Positions 33,094-40,161 of a DNA stretch of 64,000 nucleotides are shown here, piece after piece. How positions within the stretch are numbered: the stretch's first letter is position 1; each line of letters starts with the position of its first letter. The stretch is taken from positions 1 through 64,000 of the forward strand of contig CAWDWO010000007.1 of the NCBI GenBank assembly GCA_963806035.1, in the 5' to 3' direction. The translations under genes were made by a program, and so were the position numbers. The notes below the pieces were generated by a model. That model had not been told where the DNA came from. It saw only the letters and a program-made list of their open reading frames with translations, and did not search any database. This DNA is from Candidatus Krumholzibacteriota bacterium (GTDB taxonomy: Bacteria; Krumholzibacteriota; Krumholzibacteriia; JAJRXK01).

Positions 33094-33780
33094 TCATTCC
33101 TCGCTGAGGATCCCGTGAATCTTGAGCTTCTGGTAGAAGACCTGCCGGCTGAGGTGGAGGGAACGCGCGGCGCGGCTCTTGTCTCCTCTGGCCCGCCGCA
33201 GGGCACGACGGAGAAGAGCCGCTTCGCGGCTCACGAGCTCAGCTCGGCTGAGTTCTCCGGCTCGCTTCTCGAGCTTCTGCTCTTCTACGCTCACGGTGGA
33301 GCGCAGGAGCCAGGCCGGTGGACCCAGCGATCGCGCGAGCGCCTCCATTCCTTGGCGCGCCACCCGCAGCCTGAGCTTCCCCGGGCGCCAGTCCGCGTCC
33401 ACTGCCGCCAAAAATGCCACACAGGGAATGCGGTCTCCGGGAAAGGGCCAACCGACGAGCCCGTGCGCAGCCCGCTCGCGTAACCACTCCGCCAATGGAT
33501 CTGCGGACTCGCGCTGGACACTGAGGGGGCGCGCCCGCGCAAAGAGCTGCCGATACCCCGCCAAAGGGAGAGCCGTCTCGGGAAACTCGGCCGGACCCGC
33601 CTGATCCACGACCTGAAGAAGCTCGAAAACCAGCGCCGGATCGTGGGGAGCCTGCGCATGCAGGCAGCGCGCGATCCCCAGGATCTCGGCTCCCAAGGCG
33701 GCTCGCAGCGCGCTGAGTCGATCGCATAGTTCCTCCTCGGGCATGGAGGGAAGGAACCCCTTAAGAGCAGCTGAATTCAT
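33094..33780 (-). CDS. Hypothetical regulator with C-terminal Fis-type HTH, no AAA+ domain (start uncertain)
   Basis: C-terminus EAALLRRALRRARGDKSRAARSLHLSRQVFYQKLKIHGI. Confidence 0.7.
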   Translation of the reverse strand: MNSAALKGFLPSMPEEELCDRLSALRAALGAEILGIARCLHAQAPHDPALVFELLQVVDQAGPAEFPETALPLAGYRQLFARARPLSVQRESADPLAEWLRERAAHGLVGWPFPGDRIPCVAFLAAVDADWRPGKLRLRVARQGMEALARSLGPPAWLLRSTVSVEEQKLEKRAGELSRAELVSREAALLRRALRRARGDKSRAARSLHLSRQVFYQKLKIHGILSEE

Positions 33781-33845
33781 CTTGAATGCACGGAGGGGGG
33801 CGCGTGGAGCTGGTGGCAGCATCGGTGCTGCAAGGCCCGTGCCCT

Positions 33846-34946
33846 TCATCCCGGCCGACACGAGGTGGAAATTTGCTCTTCTTGGAAGCGCAGGCTGTCC
33901 TCTGCTCGGGGCGCCGGACAGCGCGCGCGCGTTCTAGCCGGCGTGAAAGCGCACGGGGCGTCTTCTCCGCGCGCCAGGACGCGTCCGATGGCCAGGGGGG
34001 GCTCGCTCAACTTTGAAGCGCACTGAGGTGAAATCTCTTCACAGATCACGACCATCCCCAAGCCCAGATTGAAGACCCGCCGCATCTCTTCTTGCTCGAT
34101 GCGACCCCGCTCTTGCAGCAGCCGGAAGATCGGGGGCACTTGCCAGGAGCCCTCGTCGATTTCCACGGCAAGTTCCTTCGGGAGAACCCGCGGGATGTTG
34201 TCGACGAGACCGCCTCCGGTGATGTGGGCCAGCGCGGCGATCGGATGACGAGCGCGCAGTTCCCTCACTTGTGAGAGGTAGCTGCGATGCACCGCGAGAA
34301 GCGCATCGGCGAGCGAACTTCCCAGTCCACCCGGATCCTTTTCGAGGGGAAGCTTCGAATCGCCCTCGAGCAGGACTTTGCGCGCCAGACTAAAACCATT
34401 GGTGTGCAGACCACTGGAAGGCCAGGCGTAGACCCTCATTCCCTCTCGCACCATGGCACCGGTGATGAGGTCCTCCTCCTCCACTCTGCCCACGATGCAG
34501 CCGGCCAGGTCGAAGTCCTCTCCGTGATAGAGGCCGGGCATCTCCGCCGTCTCTCCCCCGATCAATGCACAGCCGTTCTCGCGGCAGGCCTTGGCGAGCC
34601 CCTCCACCACCGCGACGAAGGTCCCCTCGCTCAAGCTCCCCGTCCCGTAGTAGTCCAGGAAGAAGAGCGGGGTGGCTCCCTGAACCAGGATGTCGTTGAC
34701 GCAGTGGTTCACGAGGTCCTCCCCGACCCCGCGCAACTGCCTCGCCGCCAAGGCGATTTTCAGCTTGGTTCCCACGCCGTCGATGGAGGAAACGAGCAGG
34801 GATCCATCGGCTTGGCGGTAGAGACCTCCGAAGGAGCCCACCTCCGACGCGACGGCAGGGCCCCAGGTGGAGCGGATTGCAGCACGGGAGGAGGCGAGCG
34901 CTTGGCTGGCGGCGTCGATGTCGACCCCGGATTCGCGGTATTTCAT
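33846..34946 (-). CDS. purM: AIR synthetase (phosphoribosylformylglycinamidine cyclo-ligase)
   Basis: YRESGVDI, DGVGTK, VND, GGETAEMPG, SSGLHTNGFSL, HITGGG; C-terminus possibly extended by an indel. Confidence 0.96.
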   Translation of the reverse strand: MKYRESGVDIDAASQALASSRAAIRSTWGPAVASEVGSFGGLYRQADGSLLVSSIDGVGTKLKIALAARQLRGVGEDLVNHCVNDILVQGATPLFFLDYYGTGSLSEGTFVAVVEGLAKACRENGCALIGGETAEMPGLYHGEDFDLAGCIVGRVEEEDLITGAMVREGMRVYAWPSSGLHTNGFSLARKVLLEGDSKLPLEKDPGGLGSSLADALLAVHRSYLSQVRELRARHPIAALAHITGGGLVDNIPRVLPKELAVEIDEGSWQVPPIFRLLQERGRIEQEEMRRVFNLGLGMVVICEEISPQCASKLSEPPLAIGRVLARGEDAPCAFTPARTRARCPAPRAEDSLRFQEEQISTSCRPG

Positions 34947-34952
34947 GGCGGC

Positions 34953-34981
34953 ATGCTAGGGCCAGGCGGCTGTCCTGTCAA
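34953..34981 (-). promoter_or_regulatory. Sigma70 promoter TTGACA-17-TAGCAT, 6 nt before purM ATG
   Basis: Perfect -35, 17-nt spacer, TANNNT -10. Confidence 0.75.
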
Positions 34982-35033
34982 AGATAGGCATCGGGGCGGG
35001 CTCGTACGGCTCGAATGCGCCGTGTGCCGGGCT

Positions 35034-36386
35034 CTAGCCGACGGGCAGGCCGACGGGGACTTCGGCCTCGCGGGTGGCGGCGTCGTGCAGAATTCTCTGG
35101 ATCTCCAGGGCTGTACCGTCGGCCTGGGCGATGACCTTGAAGCTGCCGTCGGCGTACATCGACTCGATGGCGTCGACCACGTCCACTGCGAACTGGCTGC
35201 CTTTGAAGCGGCGCAGCTCGTCCATGCACTGCTCGAGCGAGAGCGCGGCCCGGTAGGGACGATTGGAGGTCATGGCGTCGATCGCGTCGCAGCAGTTCAG
35301 GATGCGACTGCCCAGCTTGACCTCGTCATCACGCAGACCGTCGGGATAGCCCAGACCATCCGGACGCTCGTGGTGGTGATGCACCAGGTCGGCCGCCCCC
35401 TTGAGGAACTTCATTTGCGATACGATTTCGCCCCCGATCGCCGGATGGGAAGCGAGGATGTCGAACTCGTCCTTGGTCAGGCGCGCCGGTTTGCAGACGA
35501 TGTCGTTGGTGATGGCGATCTTGCCGATGTCGTGCAGCAGACCCGCGTATTCGAGTTCCTCCAGCTCCTCGGGCCCCATCCCCATCCGCTGTCCAATCTG
35601 CACCGCATACTTCGCCACGCGATAGCTGTGACCGTGAGTGTAGGGTTCATCGGCTTCCAGGGCGGTGGTGAGCGCGGCCACGGTGTTGATGTGAGCTTCC
35701 TTCATGTCTTCGAAGAGCTTGTGACTCTGCCAGATGATGAACAGCGGCAGACCGAAGAGGAGAAGCGACCACAGTCCGGCGTATTCGTAGGAAAAGATGA
35801 GGAAGGCACTCAGCGGTGCTGCCAGCAATCCGCTCAAGAAATGCCAGGCGTAATCGCCACGCCAAACCTGATTCCAGGTTCGCCCCTCGTTCAACACGAG
35901 TACCGTGCTGGTGAGCGTCATGTTGACGCCCGAAAAAACCATGTGAGCAACGAGTGCGGGAATGAGGAAAAGCGGTGAGGAAAGACTGTCGACACTGCTC
36001 CAAGGCAAACTATGGAACACAACGCCAGCCACCCCGACGGAGAAGGTCATCATCGCGATGTTGAAGACGACCTTCAGCGGAGAGCGGCGCTTGATCAAGC
36101 CATCGCCCACTAGCAAGCTGGCGCCTTCCATCAACATGGCGGCGGCCGGGCCGAGGGTTGCGATCACTGCGATGTCCACGGTAGAGGACGCCAGCCAATC
36201 TCCACCCGCTGAGGTCTTGACTTCGAAGAAGTCGACTCCGATCAAGAACGCGCTGAAGCAGAGAACGGGAAACCAATGCGCCGATGAGATTGGATAGCGC
36301 TGAAATACCCAGGAACCCAAGGCATACGCCGCCAGGATTAGAATCAGCACGTACAGAATTGCGATTGATTTGCGGCGGATATGCAT
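35034..36386 (-). CDS. Membrane-anchored HD-GYP phosphodiesterase (multi-TM N-terminal sensor)
   Basis: About 230-aa hydrophobic N-terminus; YTHGHSYRV, LLHDIGK, HHHERPDGLGYPDGL, DAIDAMTSNRPYR. Confidence 0.93.
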   Translation of the reverse strand: MHIRRKSIAILYVLILILAAYALGSWVFQRYPISSAHWFPVLCFSAFLIGVDFFEVKTSAGGDWLASSTVDIAVIATLGPAAAMLMEGASLLVGDGLIKRRSPLKVVFNIAMMTFSVGVAGVVFHSLPWSSVDSLSSPLFLIPALVAHMVFSGVNMTLTSTVLVLNEGRTWNQVWRGDYAWHFLSGLLAAPLSAFLIFSYEYAGLWSLLLFGLPLFIIWQSHKLFEDMKEAHINTVAALTTALEADEPYTHGHSYRVAKYAVQIGQRMGMGPEELEELEYAGLLHDIGKIAITNDIVCKPARLTKDEFDILASHPAIGGEIVSQMKFLKGAADLVHHHHERPDGLGYPDGLRDDEVKLGSRILNCCDAIDAMTSNRPYRAALSLEQCMDELRRFKGSQFAVDVVDAIESMYADGSFKVIAQADGTALEIQRILHDAATREAEVPVGLPVG

Positions 36387-36394
36387 GTGACCAA

Positions 36395-36580
36395 GGCCGG
36401 TTGAGAGGAGCTAGACTACCACTTCACCTTGCTACCGAGGACCCAGAACATTTTCCCACCTCACATCGGATTGGATTTGCCGCCATGCTCCGCTAGGGGG
36501 CGGCAGTGAGGCTTCGCTATGCGCTCGGGAATGTTTGCTCCGCTCGGGGTTTCTCTGCAGACAACTCCCCTCAACCGGCC
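36395..36580 (-). ncRNA. ~186-nt rod-like structured RNA element enclosing the micropeptide ORF
   Basis: 16-nt terminal inverted repeat (36395-36410 / 36565-36580, one G-U on the minus strand) plus four nested inner inverted repeats. Confidence 0.6.
36416..36451 (-). CDS. Micropeptide MFWVLGSKVKW (11 aa)
   Basis: ATG TTC TGG GTC CTC GGT AGC AAG GTG AAG TGG TAG; SD GAGGTG 5 nt upstream; in-frame TGA just upstream fixes the start. Confidence 0.6.
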   Translation of the reverse strand: MFWVLGSKVKW

Positions 36581-36614
36581 AAAAAGAGACCACGACCGAA
36601 GTCGCGACTTGCCA

Positions 36615-37364
36615 TCAGGCCGAGGCGGCCCGCCACGAGATCTGCTCGAGGGTGGCGTCCTCGTCCTGCACCATCAAGTCCTGAAACTCCGCTTTGCCCA
36701 GGGGACGATTCAGAGCGTCAAGACAGGCGTAAACCGTTGACTCATAAAGAGATCCATTGTCCCAGCAGGTGCCGGCCAGACGCTGGATCTGGCGGTTTGC
36801 GCCAAAATCCAGCACCACGATGACCAGGGACCCGCCGGCCAGGGAAGCCACTCGGGTGGTCCTCAATTGGATCTCATACTGGGGTTTGAGCAAGTTGCGC
36901 ACCGCTTGCACCGCCGCCTGGGCCACCAGTGCCACGCAGGCATCCGCGCCCAGGGCCGGGCCCTCCGAGCGGCCCGGAAGCCCCTCGAAGGCGCCGAGGC
37001 TCAGCTCGACCTCCGCGACGAAATTGCCGCCGCTGGTGGTGGAGTGAACGGCACTGAGACGGATCCGTGGCTCAGAGCGCTCCGGAGTCCGGCTCACGGT
37101 CGATTGGTTTGAGGGAAGGGGGGAAGCGTGAGGGGAATTGAGCTGAACCACGCCGATCTTGCGATGATCGACCTGAATACCGTGGCGACGGAGCACCGCT
37201 TCGACATCGCGCACGATGGGACGAGGAGGGCGCTGGGTATCGCTCAGCACGTCGATCTGTTCGATCTCGCCCTGAGCGTCGAGAATCAGCGACGCATAGC
37301 TCACGTTGCGAATCCTGGAGAGCTCGCGCTCCACCTCCATCACTTTCTTCGAATCGAGTCTCAT
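36615..37364 (-). CDS. Conserved-looking hypothetical protein; C-terminal half resembles the LeuA allosteric-domain pattern
   Basis: N-terminal EIEQIDVL..PRPIVRDVE..GIQVDHRKIGVVQL; C-terminal AEVELS..GRSEG..AQAAVQAV..LAG..ESTVYACLDALNR. Confidence 0.75.
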   Translation of the reverse strand: MRLDSKKVMEVERELSRIRNVSYASLILDAQGEIEQIDVLSDTQRPPRPIVRDVEAVLRRHGIQVDHRKIGVVQLNSPHASPLPSNQSTVSRTPERSEPRIRLSAVHSTTSGGNFVAEVELSLGAFEGLPGRSEGPALGADACVALVAQAAVQAVRNLLKPQYEIQLRTTRVASLAGGSLVIVVLDFGANRQIQRLAGTCWDNGSLYESTVYACLDALNRPLGKAEFQDLMVQDEDATLEQISWRAASA

Positions 37365-37496
37365 GGAGCCACCTGAGTTCTTCCTGCCCGTGCCACTGCC
37401 CTGCGAGATTCGTCGTGCTACGACTCTAGCACACGAGCCGAGCCGTCACCAAGTAGGAAACATACTAAGCCATGAATTGACAAAAGATTGAAGGGT

Positions 37497-38402
37497 TTAC
37501 TTCGGCCAGGCTACGAGCTGGCGCAGCTGCGCGCGTCTCTGCTGCACGGCGGCCGGGCTGAGATCCTTCAGGCCGCGGACACTGAAGTCCTCCGCCGCGA
37601 AGCTCGCGAGTACCGTACCCTCGATCATGGCCTCCCGCAGGAGATCGTGATCCAGCTTCTCACGACCGGCCAGATGCCCCAGGAAGCCCCCGGCGAAGGT
37701 GTCACCGGCGCCGGTCGGATCCTTGACCCGGTCCAGGATCACCGCCGGCAAGGCGAAGCGCTGCGCCCCGTCGAAGAGCAGAGCACCGTGTTCGCCCTTC
37801 TTGACGACCACGCGCTCGGGCCCCATCCCCTGGATCACCTGCACCGACTCGACCAGGGAGTGCTTCCCGCTCAGCAGGCGCACCTCCTCGTCGTTGAGAA
37901 AGACGAGATCACAGCGCTGCAGCACCTTGACCAACTCGGCGCGCGAGGATTCGATCCACAAGTTCATGGTGTCCACCGCCACCAGGCGCGGATCCTTGAC
38001 CTGCTCGAGAACTTCCAACTGCAGAGAGGGATGGATGTTGGCGAGAAAGAGAAGCTCCGGGTCCTGAAAACTCTGCGGGAGAACCGGATGAAAGTGCTCG
38101 AAGACGTTCAAGTGAGTGAACAGGGTGTCGCGCCGATTCATGTTCTCGTGATAGCGACCACCCCAGCGGAAGCACTCCCCTTTCTCCACCTGGAGTCCGC
38201 TGGTGTCGATCCCCTTGCTCGAGAGCAGTTCCCGCGCACTCTGGGGAAGATCTTCTCCCACCACGGCCACCAGCCCCACCTGCGCATCGCGTGCAGCAGC
38301 GAGCGAGAAGAAAGTGGCGCTCCCTCCCAGCGCGTTTTCGGCCTTTCCCCAGCAAGTCTCCACCGAATCCAGAGCCACCGAACCTACTACCACGATCTGC
38401 AT
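37497..38402 (-). CDS. PfkB-family carbohydrate/nucleoside kinase
   Basis: VGSVALD, LGGSATFF, NDEE, KKGEHG, DPTGAGDTFAGGF. Confidence 0.93.
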   Translation of the reverse strand: MQIVVVGSVALDSVETCWGKAENALGGSATFFSLAAARDAQVGLVAVVGEDLPQSARELLSSKGIDTSGLQVEKGECFRWGGRYHENMNRRDTLFTHLNVFEHFHPVLPQSFQDPELLFLANIHPSLQLEVLEQVKDPRLVAVDTMNLWIESSRAELVKVLQRCDLVFLNDEEVRLLSGKHSLVESVQVIQGMGPERVVVKKGEHGALLFDGAQRFALPAVILDRVKDPTGAGDTFAGGFLGHLAGREKLDHDLLREAMIEGTVLASFAAEDFSVRGLKDLSPAAVQQRRAQLRQLVAWPK

Positions 38403-38430
38403 GAACATTCCCCCATCGAAATTCTTGCGT

Positions 38431-40161
38431 TCACATTTGCTCGGGGGTGTCCATCCCCAGCAGAGTCAGAGTATTGGCCAAGACGACGCGAGTCGCCGAA
38501 CTCAGAGCCAGTCGGGCGCGTGAGAGATTGGTGTCGTCCGTGAGGATCCTACAGTGTTGGTAGAAGTGGTGGAAAGCCGAGGCCAGATCGACCGCGTATC
38601 TCGTCAAGCGCGAAACGTCGCGGGTCTCGGCACTTCGCGCGATGATGTGCGGTAGATCGGGTAGAAGGCGGCAGAGCGCGAGTTCCGCGTCTTCGGAAAG
38701 AAGCCGCAGTTCCTTCTCCGTGGCCGGGTGTTTGTCCGCTCCCTGCGCCTGCGCATTGCGTAACACGCTGCAGATCCGCGCGTGTGCGTACTTCACATAC
38801 CAGCCGGGATTGTCGTTGCTCTGTTTGCGCGCCAGGTCCAGATCGAAGTCCAGGTGCGACGAGTTCTTCCGCGACAGGAAAAAGAAGCGCGCCACGTCAG
38901 CGCCCACCTCGTCGATCAGTTGATCCATCGTGACCAGTCGTCCCGCGCGTTTGGACATCTCCAGGGGACGACCGTCCTGAATGAGGTTCACCTGCTGCAG
39001 AAGAATGATCTCGAGCCAATCGTGGGGAAAACCCAAACACTCGCTGGCTGCGGCCATGCGGGCGATGTAGCCGTGATGGTCGGGTCCCAAAAGATCGATG
39101 GCAACCTCCGCCCCACGCTCCTTCTTGCTCAGGTGGTAAGCGATGTCAGGTAGAAAGTAGGTGGGCACGCCGTCGCTCTTCACCAGCACCCTGTCCTTCT
39201 CGTCCTCGAACTCGCTCGTGGCCAGCCAGGTTGCTCCGTCCTTCTCGAAGACGTGTCCGGCTTCTTTCAAAACCTCCAGGGTCTTCTCCAGCTTTCCGCT
39301 GCGGTGGAGTTCGGTCTCGAGATACCAGGAGTCGAAGCGAACCCCATAGCGGCGGCAAGTTGCTCTTTGGGAGAGGAGCATGGCGGCGATCCCGAAGGAT
39401 CCGAAGGCCTGCGCCGAACTCTCGTCGCTTTGAAGTTCGAGCCAGTCCTTGGGCTCGCCCTTGGGCAGTGAGAGATCGCCGATGATGCGACCCGCCTCTT
39501 CGTCACTTTCCTGAGTGAGAAGAGAGGTGCCACGTTCCAGCAGATCGCGCGCGAGTTCTTGCAGGTACTCTCCCTGGTATCCCTCCTCGGGAAGCTCGGC
39601 GGCCTCTCCCCTCGCCTGGAGGTATCGTGCCCGGAGACTGCGTCCGAAGAGCAGGACCTGGCGGCCGGCATTGTTTACGTAAAACTCGCTGCTGGGCCGA
39701 TAGCCCGCGCGGTCCATGACGCGATGCAGGGTCGATCCGACAGCGGCGGCGCGCGCACTCACGATGTTCAGAGGCCCCGTGGGATTCGCGCTGATGTACT
39801 CCAGGCTGATGCGCTGTCCCTCCCCGGCCTGGCTGCGTCCGTATTCCTCCGCCTCATCCAGGATGCGCAAAATCGGCTCGGTAAGCGCTTCTTGCGAGTA
39901 ACGGAAATTGATGAATCCCGGGCCCGCGATCTCCAGCGATTCCACCTGGGATTTGTCCAGCTCCAGGCTGGCTGCGATCTCTCCCGCGAGCTCCCGAGGT
40001 TTTCGCTCCAGTCGCTTCGCCAGAAGGAGAGCGACGTTGGAGCTGAGATCGCCGTGACTGGGATCCTTGGGCTGCTCCAGTTCCAGACGCACGTCTTCCT
40101 CGAAGACTCCGTAACCCTCCAGGGCTTTCATGAGAGCGTCGCGAATGAGCTTCTCGATCAT
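38431..40161 (-). CDS. argS: Arginyl-tRNA synthetase
   Basis: HGDLSSN, AGPGFINF, SANPTGPL, GPDHHGY, MSKRAG, YAHARICS. Confidence 0.97.
   Translation of the reverse strand: MIEKLIRDALMKALEGYGVFEEDVRLELEQPKDPSHGDLSSNVALLLAKRLERKPRELAGEIAASLELDKSQVESLEIAGPGFINFRYSQEALTEPILRILDEAEEYGRSQAGEGQRISLEYISANPTGPLNIVSARAAAVGSTLHRVMDRAGYRPSSEFYVNNAGRQVLLFGRSLRARYLQARGEAAELPEEGYQGEYLQELARDLLERGTSLLTQESDEEAGRIIGDLSLPKGEPKDWLELQSDESSAQAFGSFGIAAMLLSQRATCRRYGVRFDSWYLETELHRSGKLEKTLEVLKEAGHVFEKDGATWLATSEFEDEKDRVLVKSDGVPTYFLPDIAYHLSKKERGAEVAIDLLGPDHHGYIARMAAASECLGFPHDWLEIILLQQVNLIQDGRPLEMSKRAGRLVTMDQLIDEVGADVARFFFLSRKNSSHLDFDLDLARKQSNDNPGWYVKYAHARICSVLRNAQAQGADKHPATEKELRLLSEDAELALCRLLPDLPHIIARSAETRDVSRLTRYAVDLASAFHHFYQHCRILTDDTNLSRARLALSSATRVVLANTLTLLGMDTPEQM

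Follow-up and report, generated by a model that had tools for sequence, protein, structure and literature searches.

Leader ORFs are known to control ermC and ermB, cat and cmlA, secA (through secM), and yidC2 (through mifM). In the tnaC leader, the ribosome stalls at the end of the leader in a Trp-dependent manner. Small membrane proteins can also tune membrane sensors, as in MgrB-PhoQ, SafA-PhoQ, and PmrR. These modulators have 26-65 residues and a full transmembrane helix. A third kind of small product is the SHP and XIP pheromones of Gram-positive bacteria, which need genes for export, processing, and import as well as a cytoplasmic TPR/HTH receptor (Rgg or ComR). As for c-di-GMP itself, the HD-GYP enzymes are the less understood branch of its degradation. 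To our knowledge, MASE9 is an orphan membrane sensor domain without a known ligand.

We analyzed 64,000 nucleotides of contig CAWDWO010000007.1 from a Candidatus Krumholzibacteriota bacterium (GCA_963806035.1). We will refer to this whole stretch as the window. Within it, a gene that we call A, a micro-ORF, and a gene for a membrane HD-GYP protein all lie on the minus strand and are flanked by a pfkB-family kinase gene (37497-38408) and purM (33846-34946). A preliminary description had listed a 249-aa ORF, an 11-codon ORF with a strong Shine-Dalgarno (SD) site, and a 450-aa HD-GYP ORF 29 nt further on, and this triplet is correct to the base. (The 29 nt, 36415-36387, are the exact distance from the micro-ORF's stop to the ATG of the 450-aa ORF.) That description overlooked the RNA: the micro-ORF sits in a covarying long-range helix, P1, and a role in cis, in translational coupling or attenuation, is at least as well supported as a role as a ligand. 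The features of the two genes and of the 228-nt stretch between them are, from high to low coordinates:

36615..37364, minus strand: gene A, an ORF whose 249-aa product is acidic, cytoplasmic, and two-domain and belongs to no family described so far
36581..36608, minus strand: terminator-like hairpin GTCGCGACTTCGGTCGTGGT followed by CTCTTTTT, immediately after the stop of A and immediately before the 5' arm of P1 (from a consensus scan)
36562..36580, minus strand: 5' arm of the long-range helix P1, GGCCGGTTGAGGGGAGTTG, which pairs with 36395-36414 in the MFE fold
36537..36545, minus strand: box 1, GAGCGGAGC, a single-stranded conserved repeat that is nearly invariant in alignment A2
36511..36519, minus strand: box 2, TAGCGAAGC (from the sequence)
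36478..36505, minus strand: hairpin P2 (TGCCGCC / GGCGGCA), from RNAalifold and the MFE fold
36487..36495, minus strand: third box, TAGCGGAGC, in the loop of P2 (from the sequence)
36456..36464, minus strand: SD site of the micro-ORF, GTGAGGTGG, whose GAGGTG is invariant in 29 aligned leaders
36416..36451, minus strand: micro-ORF of 11 codons closed by a TAG stop (ATG..TGG TAG), encoding MFWVLGSKVKW*, with relatives of 11-37 codons
36395..36414, minus strand: 3' arm of P1, CTAGCTCCTCTCAACCGGCC, from 1 nt past the stop codon to 8 nt before the HD-GYP ATG (from the fold)
35034..36386, minus strand: gene for a 450-aa membrane protein with MASE9 and HD-GYP domains, a predicted c-di-GMP phosphodiesterase (from Pfam)

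As in the erm, cat, and secM leaders, a short upstream ORF with its own strong SD precedes the regulated gene. Also as in these leaders, a helix is predicted to involve the sequence shortly past the leader's stop and ahead of the regulated start, and to be opened by a ribosome at the end of the leader. However, P1 is a long-range helix within which the entire leader lies, with the ORF and the conserved GAGCGGAGC boxes. Also, the peptide is hydrophobic along its whole length (11-37 aa), and the regulated gene encodes a c-di-GMP phosphodiesterase. As with the MgrB-type modulators, a small hydrophobic product is encoded next to a membrane signaling protein, but the window's peptide, at 11 residues, has no membrane-spanning length, and the micro-ORF lies inside the sensor gene's own structured leader, with proposed translational coupling. 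Finally, the c-di-GMP-I and c-di-GMP-II riboswitches are also structured leaders before genes for c-di-GMP turnover, but the leader described here has no Rfam match at E ≤ 1 and has an ORF inside its closing helix. An Rfam 15 scan of 34000-38500 found no known riboswitch or leader family. (Its only match at E ≤ 1 is a chance IRES match inside purM.) We found no published description of such a leader in the literature.

In the 450-aa protein, residues 241-399 match HD_5 (PF13487; E = 1.7e-31, with a score of 109.7 bits where the curated cut-off is 27.2), and the translation includes the motifs HD, HHHHE, and DGLGYP, as well as LLHDIGK and HHHHERPDGLGYP. In an alignment of 21 sequences that includes the window's, H297, D298, H352, H353, E354, D357, G358, G360, Y361, and P362 are invariant. 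The HD, HHE, and GYP motifs are intact, as had been proposed. The preliminary description also suggested checking the transmembrane domain against the MASE families of Pfam, and residues 70-208 do match MASE9 (PF20972; 38 bits against a cut-off of 24.3). Kyte-Doolittle peaks suggest about 7 hydrophobic segments in residues 1-221. MASE9 is described as having about 8 membrane segments, two of them short, and its describers propose that it binds a ligand within the membrane (10.1101/2021.11.05.467447).

The micro-ORF is conserved. A comparison of short ORFs and synteny at homologous loci found that the triplet is real and recurs across lineages. In the window's family, the micro-ORF is kept in 9 of 10 loci (the tenth is interrupted by masked bases), and two further families also carry it. 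By our counting rule, 33 of 80 genome loci have a micro-ORF, and so do L038 and L042. A strict 14-codon pattern was found in 35 of 208 genomes of the phylum, compared to 0 for a reversed control pattern, and it occurs once per genome. (One genome has a second match, which is a contig-end duplicate.) Relatives of the micro-ORF, which have 11-37 codons, occur at the same position in Krumholzibacteriota, in MAGs labelled as Eisenbacteria, and in many metagenome contigs. They encode hydrophobic peptides with a Trp among the last three residues (0, 1, or 2 residues from the end). Similar Trp-ended triplets had been mentioned in the preliminary description, and they do recur in other lineages, although the "GxxxxW" form given for them fits only the window's own family.

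The pattern of conservation is that of a coding sequence. Across 20 distinct 14-codon relatives, the entropies of the three codon positions are 0.68, 0.52, and 1.04, so the third position is the most variable. Residues 13 and 14 (E and W) of the 14-codon relatives are invariant, and their hydrophobic positions always have T at codon position 2. Among 42 distinct peptides from metagenomes, the mean GRAVY is +0.78 and 7.2% of residues are Trp. Runs of 15-20 hydrophobic residues are present in relatives with 19-37 residues. All three stop codons are used, and the micro-ORF is kept at the same place despite differences in nucleotide sequence and length. These comparisons indicate that the micro-ORF is not a chance ORF and is selected as a coding sequence. 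The peptide gene that was first proposed from the window is real, with a hydrophobic product and coding-type entropies. Its translation in these uncultured organisms is inferred from conservation.

We also examined the RNA around the micro-ORF. The window's leader has an MFE of -98.1 kcal/mol, compared to -82.9 +/- 4.9 for shuffles (z = -3.14; 1 of 200 shuffles was as good), and P1, P2, and the anti-SD pairing are all formed in this fold. The P1 duplex in the window has an energy of -43.9 kcal/mol (z = -4.6 against shuffles). Its z score is -2.4 or below in 30 of 36 genome leaders and below -2 in 32 of 37 metagenome leaders. The sequence of the P1 arms differs among lineages while their complementarity stays, and RNAalifold reports pairs that changed on both sides in P1 and in P2. 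(In P2, alignment positions 144-148 pair with 170-174, and two pairs have double-sided changes in 4 sequences each.) A caveat is that P1 is as stable on the opposite strand, with the sense strand more stable in 18 of 36 leaders. G-U pairs therefore do not fix the strand of P1, and an inverted repeat at the DNA level is compatible with this test.

The 3' arm of P1 starts at the stop of the micro-ORF and ends just before the HD-GYP start. In 32 metagenome leaders, the arm starts at a mean of 4 nt past the stop (sd 6.8), and in 36 genome leaders it starts 0-12 nt past the stop. A helix that masks the regulated start and is opened by the leader ribosome is predicted from this fold and from covariation. 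The SD of the micro-ORF may be masked as well: of 75 folded leaders, 73 have it paired to a segment further upstream, a count that has no shuffle control. In the window's MFE fold, the partner is the segment of box 2 and CTCAC. (The last bases of box 2 and the following CTCAC, together GCCTCAC at 36506-36512, are complementary to GTGAGGT in the SD.) The boxes have a 5-nt NAGCG period; two of them are single-stranded and one is often in the P2 loop. Upstream of P1, the terminator-like hairpin is kept in the genus (the sequences of L002-L005), and the consensus scan found 3 terminator-like sites in the region against 2.1 expected, which is weak on its own.

The leader goes with the HD-GYP gene rather than with A. 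Searching metagenomes with the GAGCGGAGC box as the pattern found the module again, and this RNA-only scan gave 80 loci. An ORF of 10-40 aa with a W in its last 3 residues is present in 45 of these 80. Where such a locus has at least 1400 nt of downstream sequence, an HD-GYP gene is always present (24 of 24), compared to 0 of 20 among the 35 loci that lack such an ORF. The linked proteins usually have MASE9, with a match at E ≤ 0.01 in 11 of 12 and above the curated cut-off in 7 of 12. In one MAG labelled as Gemmatimonadota, HD-GYP and purM are found together with the boxes and with an ORF of 24 codons whose last residue is W, and A is elsewhere in the genome. The HD-GYP gene starts 20-45 nt past the micro-ORF's stop in 18 of 24 metagenome loci (range, -10 to 101) and 29-63 nt past it in the window's family. 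In the window, the HD-GYP ATG has no SD-like sequence, and the upstream TTGGTCAC has no GGAG-like run.

There are also loci without the leader. In 18 of them, A and HD-GYP are 5-27 nt apart, and in 9 more, gaps of 107-224 nt have no recognizable micro-ORF. Because these loci exist, the enzyme does not need the peptide. Another family of the phylum, f2, has the HD-GYP start about 130-190 nt further downstream, with its own SD-like run (as read from the sequence). The peptide is nonetheless conserved in f2, a hint that coupling is not all that it does. By eye, we identified T-rich runs and promoter-like boxes after the 3' arm of P1 in this family, so the micro-ORF of f2 may end a separate transcript and may not be coupled to translation of HD-GYP.

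We propose that the micro-ORF probably controls the synthesis of the HD-GYP enzyme. When P1 is closed, the start region of HD-GYP would be masked. To finish the micro-ORF, a ribosome would have to melt P1, and this would allow initiation or re-initiation at the HD-GYP ATG, so that synthesis of the phosphodiesterase would be coupled to translation of the micro-ORF. Translation of the micro-ORF would itself be gated by the upstream structure, with its sequestered SD and with boxes that might have a ligand or partner. Less firmly, we suggest that the short, hydrophobic, Trp-ended peptide, whose synthesis would keep pace with that of the enzyme, acts on the enzyme as well. Inserted at the membrane, the peptide would bind MASE9 as a small subunit or ligand and tune the hydrolysis of c-di-GMP. 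As a whole, the reading that we tentatively favor, at close to an even chance, is a module of a structured RNA and a translated micro-ORF that couples HD-GYP synthesis and whose peptide also acts on the enzyme.

Our evidence that the peptide may also bind the MASE9-HD-GYP enzyme is from predicted complexes. For a 34-aa relative of the peptide (the window's has 11 residues) with residues 1-245 of the MASE9 protein from metagenome locus L140, using alignments that we built ourselves, the median score was 0.47, compared to 0.02 for the best control. At least 90% of contacts agree among the runs, and the pLDDT of the partner is at least 73. Among solved complexes, 116 of 157 reached the mark for these scores, as did 2 of 215 mismatched pairs, but the range of 0.60 or under contains only 18 of the 157 solved complexes and both of the passing mismatches. 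Another caveat is that the controls were unrelated and possibly non-hydrophobic proteins, so that any membrane domain might give a score with a hydrophobic helix. So the idea that the peptide is a ligand or subunit of the sensor, which began with the preliminary description, gains weak support for a longer relative, while the window's own peptide is too short to span the membrane.

A pure leader peptide is another explanation. Here only the position of the ribosome, or its arrest at the Trp codon or codons, would matter, and the peptide itself would be functionless. Either free Trp or charged tRNA-Trp would be sensed through the conserved terminal Trp codons, or the arrest would be due to the nascent chain. 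While the ribosome stays on the last codons, P1 would remain open and HD-GYP translation on, and in f2 this would prevent formation of P1 with its U-tract as a terminator. Several observations fit: a Trp is always in the last three codons, and 7.2% of residues are Trp; the arm starts so close to the stop that it must be covered when a ribosome reaches the end of the ORF; the window's HD-GYP gene lacks an SD and its peptide has only 11 aa; and T-runs follow the 3' arm of P1 in several f2 loci (L036, L075, and L097). The erm and cat leaders and tnaC have a similar design. But hydrophobicity is conserved along the whole peptide and not only next to the peptidyl-transferase center, and the variation in length and in the position of the Trp is a poor fit to a precise arrest motif. 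The arm's distance to the UGG varies about as much as its distance to the stop (sd 6.7 vs. 6.8), and a mixture of stop codons is used. We know of no reason for the supply of Trp to control a MASE9-HD-GYP enzyme. Overall, a peptide that acts only in cis seems to us a serious but doubtful alternative.

A more elaborate version of our preferred reading is an integrated switch. In this version, a ligand or protein that is sensed by the boxes gates the micro-ORF, and the peptide is the cognate intramembrane ligand or subunit of MASE9, made one for one with it. We consider the full switch to be unlikely.

Alternatively, the leader could be an RNA switch that responds to a ligand or protein, with the micro-ORF being secondary. 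(This is compatible with either our preferred reading or a pure leader peptide.) The boxes would bind a small molecule, such as c-di-GMP or an amino acid, or else a repeat-recognizing protein like TRAP or HutP, possibly A, whose C-terminal domain resembles a regulatory domain that binds amino acids. Across very distant lineages, no other primary sequence in the module is as conserved as the GAGCGGAGC-type boxes, and they lie in junctions between covarying helices, as the cores of riboswitches do. Protein A is directly upstream in 29 of the 36 metagenome modules that have enough upstream DNA, and its fold is also suggestive. A has no family in Pfam (at E ≤ 0.01) or NCBIfam, but in the AF2 model (pLDDT 81.6), residues 1-77 form a ferredoxin-like domain (alpha-beta-beta-alpha-beta), and residues 99-223 form two beta-beta-beta-alpha units, which is the same fold as the regulatory domain of LeuA and citramalate synthase. 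The Foldseek match is 1sr9_B (E = 8.9e-5), and the VIA-align matches are 3f6g_B (Z = 9.2, rmsd 2.9, 108 of 115 residues aligned) and 3fig_A (Z = 8.2). The C-terminal domain has no sequence match to the LeuA family, and a profile from alignment A1 had no PDB match at E ≤ 1. A common fold between these modeled and regulatory domains does not demonstrate a common function.

Against an RNA switch, the leader matches no Rfam family at E ≤ 1, and GAGCGAAGC-type words are common in unrelated repeats as well (31 of the 80 metagenome scan loci). We found no CsrA gene in the window's genome, which is 93.7% complete. The net charge of A is -3 to -19 in 17 of 18 homologs (it is +1 in L003), and RNA-binding proteins are not usually this acidic. 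There are loci, too, with A but without the leader, both in the 18 loci with short gaps and in 12 of the 80 genome loci, where A directly precedes purM and both HD-GYP and the micro-ORF are absent. And in the Gemmatimonadota-labelled MAG, the module is present without an adjacent A. We think that an RNA switch with a secondary micro-ORF is quite unlikely.

The same observations bear on the earlier proposal of a three-part system, one part of which would be A. Because A can precede purM without HD-GYP, and because one MAG has the module without an adjacent A, the membership of A in the system is not shown. A is present in all 41 of 41 related genomes, and the order argS-pfkB-A-(HD-GYP)-purM, in which HD-GYP is optional, is deeply conserved. 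A is a neighbor in this housekeeping-like block and need not belong to the module.

The peptide could instead be an exported pheromone, like the short hydrophobic peptides of streptococci, that is secreted or released, accumulates outside the cell, and is then sensed by MASE9 from the membrane. As with SHP and XIP, which these peptides resemble in general look, a tiny unannotated ORF beside a gene for a (membrane) receptor encodes a short hydrophobic peptide with an aromatic C-terminal part, here a Trp. However, the 11-14-aa forms have no signal peptide; the conserved argS-pfkB-A-HD-GYP-purM block has no gene for an exporter, a protease, or an importer; and the receptor is not of the Rgg/RRNPP type, with no TPR/HTH receptor in the block either. 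Also, the proposed tight translational coupling to the receptor gene is more what one would expect of a stoichiometric partner than of a diffusible signal. An exported pheromone is highly improbable, and the "quorum-like" circuit that was originally envisioned found no support, as there is no sign of export, processing, or cell-to-cell signaling. Finally, that the ORF is an untranslated by-product of a structured RNA or of inverted-repeat DNA is hardly credible: it is very short and lies inside a stable fold, and P1 is equally stable on both strands, but its frame, its start codon with a constant spacing to the invariant GGAGGTG-type SD, and its stop right after the Trp all survive in dozens of lineages whose sequences and lengths have changed wholesale, with most of the variation at the third codon position.

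Genes of 11-37 codons, which no annotation pipeline is known to call, can rank with the best conserved parts of their locus. The module of a structured RNA and a tiny peptide linked to an HD-GYP enzyme is conserved across phyla and is easy to search for. It offers a candidate partner for MASE9 and a testable mechanism for the control of the enzyme's synthesis. Although the carriers are uncultured, the module, which is the gene and about 230 nt before it, could be moved as a whole into a laboratory host. If the integrated switch is correct, then the module would be a new class of regulatory unit for second-messenger enzymes across several uncultured phyla.

The 450-aa protein at this locus, a predicted c-di-GMP phosphodiesterase with MASE9 and HD-GYP domains, is preceded by a module comprising a structured leader RNA and a micro-ORF. 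The features are all on the minus strand.

Features of the locus (positions in the window)
37497-38408, minus: pfkB-family kinase gene
36615-37364, minus: gene A, encoding a 249-aa protein
A to HD-GYP, minus: 228-nt spacer
36580-36562 (GGCCGGTTGAGGGGAGTTG) with 36414-36395 (CTAGCTCCTCTCAACCGGCC), minus: P1, a 19-bp long-range helix around the micro-ORF (predicted fold)
within P1: box 1, GAGCGGAGC, and box 2, TAGCGAAGC; a third box, TAGCGGAGC, is in the loop of the inner hairpin P2
anti-SD, GCCTCAC: paired with the Shine-Dalgarno sequence (SD) of the micro-ORF (predicted fold)
36451 (ATG) to 36416 (TGG TAG end), minus: micro-ORF, 11 codons, MFWVLGSKVKW, preceded by GTGAGGTGG
35034-36386, minus: MASE9-HD-GYP ORF, 450 aa (Pfam)
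33846-34946, minus: purM

Pfam matches in the 450-aa protein include HD_5 (E = 1.7e-31) and MASE9 (38 bits; the cut-off is 24.3), and its HD, HHE, and GYP motifs are invariant across an alignment of 21 relatives. The stop codon of the micro-ORF is exactly 29 nt from the ATG of the HD-GYP gene. The preliminary description had listed A, the micro-ORF, the 29-nt gap, and the HD-GYP motifs, and the sequence, Pfam, and the alignment show that it was exact on all of these.

A is present in all 41 related genomes, and of 20 loci that we fetched, 18 have a MASE9-HD-GYP orthologue after it. Using an alignment of A, we found 80 loci in one-genome-per-species contigs (L021-L100). The co-directional block argS-pfkB-A-MASE9-HD-GYP-purM (33094-40161 in the window) is kept in 49 of these. 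Such deep synteny of housekeeping and signalling genes that are mutually unrelated is unusual. Because the whole argS-purM block is conserved, the fact that A and HD-GYP are neighbours argues only weakly for a function in common. (MAGs with the block carry the labels Krumholzibacteriota, Eisenbacteria, and Latescibacterota, among others. After purM, the window's family has a gene for a Fis-type HTH protein. The stretch that separates the HD-GYP gene from purM has a near-consensus sigma-70-like promoter, TTGACA, 17 nt, TAGCAT, at 34953-34981 on the minus strand, so purM may have its own promoter.)

Several pieces of evidence indicate that the module goes with MASE9-HD-GYP and not necessarily with A. 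First, we scanned metagenome contigs with a pattern for the RNA only (two GAGCGRAGC boxes and GGAGGTG), which uses neither protein. At least 119 stretches matched, and we fetched 80 of them. In 45 of the 80, the SD is followed by an ORF of 10-40 aa with tryptophan within the last three residues. An HD-GYP gene is present in all 24 of these 45 that have at least 1400 nt downstream, and A is present in 29 of the 36 that have at least 900 nt upstream. Among the other 35 stretches, 20 have enough DNA and none of these has HD-GYP. (Four of the 35 are true modules that were missed by the spacing rule or cut by contig ends, and the rest are unrelated repeats or coding sequence.) Of 12 module-linked proteins that we scanned, all have HD_5 and 11 have MASE9 (E ≤ 0.01), with 7 of these above the cut-off.

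Second, A lies directly before purM in 12 of the 80 loci found with A, and the micro-ORF is absent from all 12. Of these genomes, the five that we searched (G041-G045) contain only unrelated HD-GYP proteins; they lack a MASE9 orthologue, since the matches span residues 210-427 only. Third, one MAG labelled Gemmatimonadota has the boxes, a 24-codon ORF (ending in ..IRW), HD-GYP, and purM together, with A 2.4 Mb away. (The phylum-wide search around this MAG took in 2 genomes.)

Some loci fall outside these groups. In 18 loci there is no leader and the gap from A to HD-GYP is 5-27 nt, and 9 further loci have a gap of 107-224 nt with no recognisable micro-ORF. In one MAG (L043), the place of HD-GYP or purM after A is taken by a B12-binding radical SAM protein (Radical_SAM_N2 and Radical_SAM). 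L056 and L070 have no micro-ORF and keep the word GCCGGTTCCC, which resembles one P1 arm, immediately 3' of the stop codon of A; they look as if the leader had been lost by deletion between its arms. Among the 80 fetched box-pattern loci, 31 are not modules (such as L126, L153, L170, L184, L196, L199, L202, and L203), and many of these are tandem or palindromic intergenic repeats with GAGCGAAGCG words. These words are a common building block of repeats in metagenomes and inflate the pattern matches.

We then examined the micro-ORF, which is conserved and, judging from its codons, behaves as coding sequence. An ORF is at the same position in 9 of 10 loci from the window's family, and the tenth is interrupted by masked bases. 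The forms in this family are MFWVLGSKVKW, MFWVLGSKIRW, (V)IAWLLGSKIKW, MRWLMSVMLAGHIKW, MRFLEMLLQAINLGGKVYW, and MTFLEMMLDFFSLAGVIKW, all with GTGAGGTG upstream and Trp-stop at the end; MLHWLLGFLSKFEW and MFKFIFDLLFGDLLLTKTWW are forms from two other families. Across the 80 genome loci, 33 have an SD and a short ORF whose last or penultimate residue is tryptophan, and L038 and L042 also have a micro-ORF, with longer SD spacing. The commonest form has 14 residues, M-[LI]-[DE..]-[WFY]-[LIV]-[LM]-x-[LIM]-[FL]-[STFY]-[KR]-[WF]-E-W. Among 20 distinct nucleotide versions of this form, the entropies of codon positions 1, 2, and 3 are 0.68, 0.52, and 1.04. T is always kept at codon position 2 of the hydrophobic positions, and E13-W14 is unchanging. 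We searched the phylum's 208 genomes with a strict DNA pattern for this form: 35 matched, each of them once, and the reversed control matched none; all 35 belong to one family (35 of 91 genomes). (An apparent second copy in G030 was rejected as a contig-end duplicate of the same locus.)

Peptides from the metagenome lineages are typically about 23 residues long, such as MEFMAQLVSAFWSFVLADGKTWT, with a hydrophobic run of 15-17 residues, then a short polar tail, and then tryptophan. Codon-position entropies for 13 distinct 23-codon ORFs (1.32, 1.13, and 1.24) are not informative, since this set is too mixed and too divergent. Across 42 distinct peptides, the mean GRAVY is +0.78 and 7.2% of residues are tryptophan. 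The peptide family is broad, and no member that we saw is shorter than the window's 11-mer. In the MAG labelled Gemmatimonadota (L118/L243; G213:C1, about 5.016 Mb), the micro-ORF reads (V)KKLFGVIFLLMMASSSFGCVIRW and has 100 masked bases immediately upstream. It resembles the signal peptide of a lipoprotein and has a lipobox-like ..FGC with no more than four residues after it; tiny lipopeptides might thus be the products of some family members. MAGs labelled Eisenbacteria (L029-L031, L044, L038, L042, L072, and L166) have longer variants (MWELLLDLLSLVFEGKSGWM, MPKLIYTIIAALLSYITVSGGQSNWW, and LIALWIAAIYVVLNGGRAGW), and their leaders have AAGCGAAGCGA-type boxes and no convincing P1 (z from -1.5 to +0.8).

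The leader is predicted to be structured. In the window, 36380-36614 folds at -98.1 kcal/mol, as compared to -82.9 ± 4.9 in 200 shuffles (z = -3.14). The 3' arm of P1 extends from 1 nt past the stop codon of the micro-ORF to 8 nt ahead of the HD-GYP ATG. P1 was found in 30 of 36 distinct genome leaders (duplex z ≤ -2.4 versus shuffled 3' flanks; the exceptions are five Eisenbacteria-type leaders and L020) and in 32 of 37 metagenome leaders. The arms differ widely by lineage and remain complementary (GGAACCGGCAC/GTGCCGGTTCC, GGGGGTCGATCTG/CAGATCGACCCC, CCCCCGTCCCGG/CCGGGGCGGGGG, and others). RNAalifold recovered P1 and P2 from 29 leaders; in 5 of the 14 pairs, both partners have changed. From the 5' parts of 30 metagenome leaders it recovered only 5 invariant pairs (box 2 with the SD flank) and no covariation. 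P1 is equally stable on the opposite strand (sense is more stable in 18 of 36), so a strand test based on G-U pairs is uninformative. When we folded 75 leaders, 73 had the SD of the micro-ORF paired with sequence upstream of it, at a mean pairing probability of 0.79 (figures without a shuffle control).

In metagenome leaders, the 3' arm of P1 starts on average 4 nt after the stop codon of the micro-ORF (sd 6.8). In 18 of the 24 loci from metagenomes that we examined, HD-GYP starts 20-45 nt after this stop (overall range, -10 to 101 nt). The layout is different in f2, a family of the phylum with a 14-codon micro-ORF, where about 130-190 nt separate the 3' arm from a GTG or TTG start with its own SD-like run. 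By eye, several f2 loci have T-rich runs after P1, and there are TTGC..TAxxxT-like boxes between P1 and the start; P1 may act as a terminator in this family. In L034, L036, L053, L054, L058, L077, and L082, the extra 130-190 nt contain recurring words (TTGC..N17..TAxxxT-like, CTCAAGCAC, and TGCCGAT(A)), which resemble a distinct promoter or a further conserved element.

A search of Rfam with 34000-38500 (E ≤ 1) gave no relevant family match, and a keyword search of the literature found no published description of such a module. The design of this module most resembles leader-ORF controls (erm/cat, secM, and tnaC, for example) and possibly also small proteins that modulate membrane sensors (MgrB, for instance). 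Unlike these, the module has a closing helix that surrounds the ORF, conserved repeat boxes, and a family of hydrophobic, Trp-ended peptides, and it is attached specifically to MASE9-HD-GYP genes in several phyla.

What might A do? Its AlphaFold2 model (pLDDT 81.6) has two domains with a disordered linker between them. Residues 99-223 resemble the leucine- or isoleucine-binding regulatory domains of LeuA and citramalate synthase (Foldseek 1sr9_B, E = 8.9e-5; VIA-align 3f6g_B, Z = 9.2, rmsd 2.9, 108 aligned). The fold of residues 1-77 is a ferredoxin-like alpha-beta-beta-alpha-beta unit (Z of 7-8.5 to C-terminal domains of CDF transporters and to EscJ), which is common and not diagnostic. A has no Pfam or NCBIfam match, and searching PDB sequences with its profile gave 0 matches, so by sequence A is not linked to a solved structure. 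None of 89 homologues has a Pfam domain, and all are unnamed or "hypothetical" except for one that its source labels "predicted nucleic-acid-binding protein." A role as an RNA-binding factor is disfavoured because A is acidic: of 18 homologues, 17 have a net charge between -3 and -19, and the other has +1. A may be a small-molecule-binding protein. We found no mechanistic tie between A and the module.

With the module's anatomy and conservation established, we propose how it might work. P1 would mask the start region of HD-GYP, which in the window has no SD. A ribosome that completes the micro-ORF would have to melt P1, and therefore translation of HD-GYP would be coupled to translation of the micro-ORF. 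Whether the micro-ORF is translated would in turn depend on the fold that sequesters its SD and on the reader of the boxes.

The main rival is that the leader acts purely in cis, via the terminal Trp codon or arrest of the nascent chain. The distances do not tell the two readings apart: the standard deviation is 6.7 from UGG to the arm and 6.8 from the stop codon to the arm. The boxes may also bind a ligand or a protein, which could be layered on either reading. (The box words are not enriched genome-wide, and the genome has one box cluster of this kind. CsrA was considered as a reader of the GGA-containing boxes and rejected, as the 93.7%-complete genome has no CsrA gene.) The preliminary description guessed at a quorum-like circuit, and nothing in our analysis points to an exported signal of the quorum type.

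As for the peptide, we predicted the complex of a longer relative in place of the window's 11-aa peptide: the 34-aa peptide of L140 with residues 1-245 of the L140 MASE9 protein. The median score was 0.47, as compared to 0.02 for the best control. The contacts agreed across runs (at least 90%), and the partner's pLDDT was at least 73. Among solved complexes, 116 of 157 pass the mark for this score, and 2 of 215 mismatched pairs also do; with scores of 0.60 or below, only 18 of the 157 pass it, together with both of the passing mismatches. This lends weak support to binding between the peptide and MASE9. The peptide is hydrophobic along its full length despite large changes in sequence and size, and it is conserved in f2, where the coupling distance is lost. 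Also, the domain's describers proposed that the ligand site of MASE9 is within the membrane (10.1101/2021.11.05.467447). Together, these last three features suggest that the peptide itself is functional, most simply as a membrane partner of MASE9.
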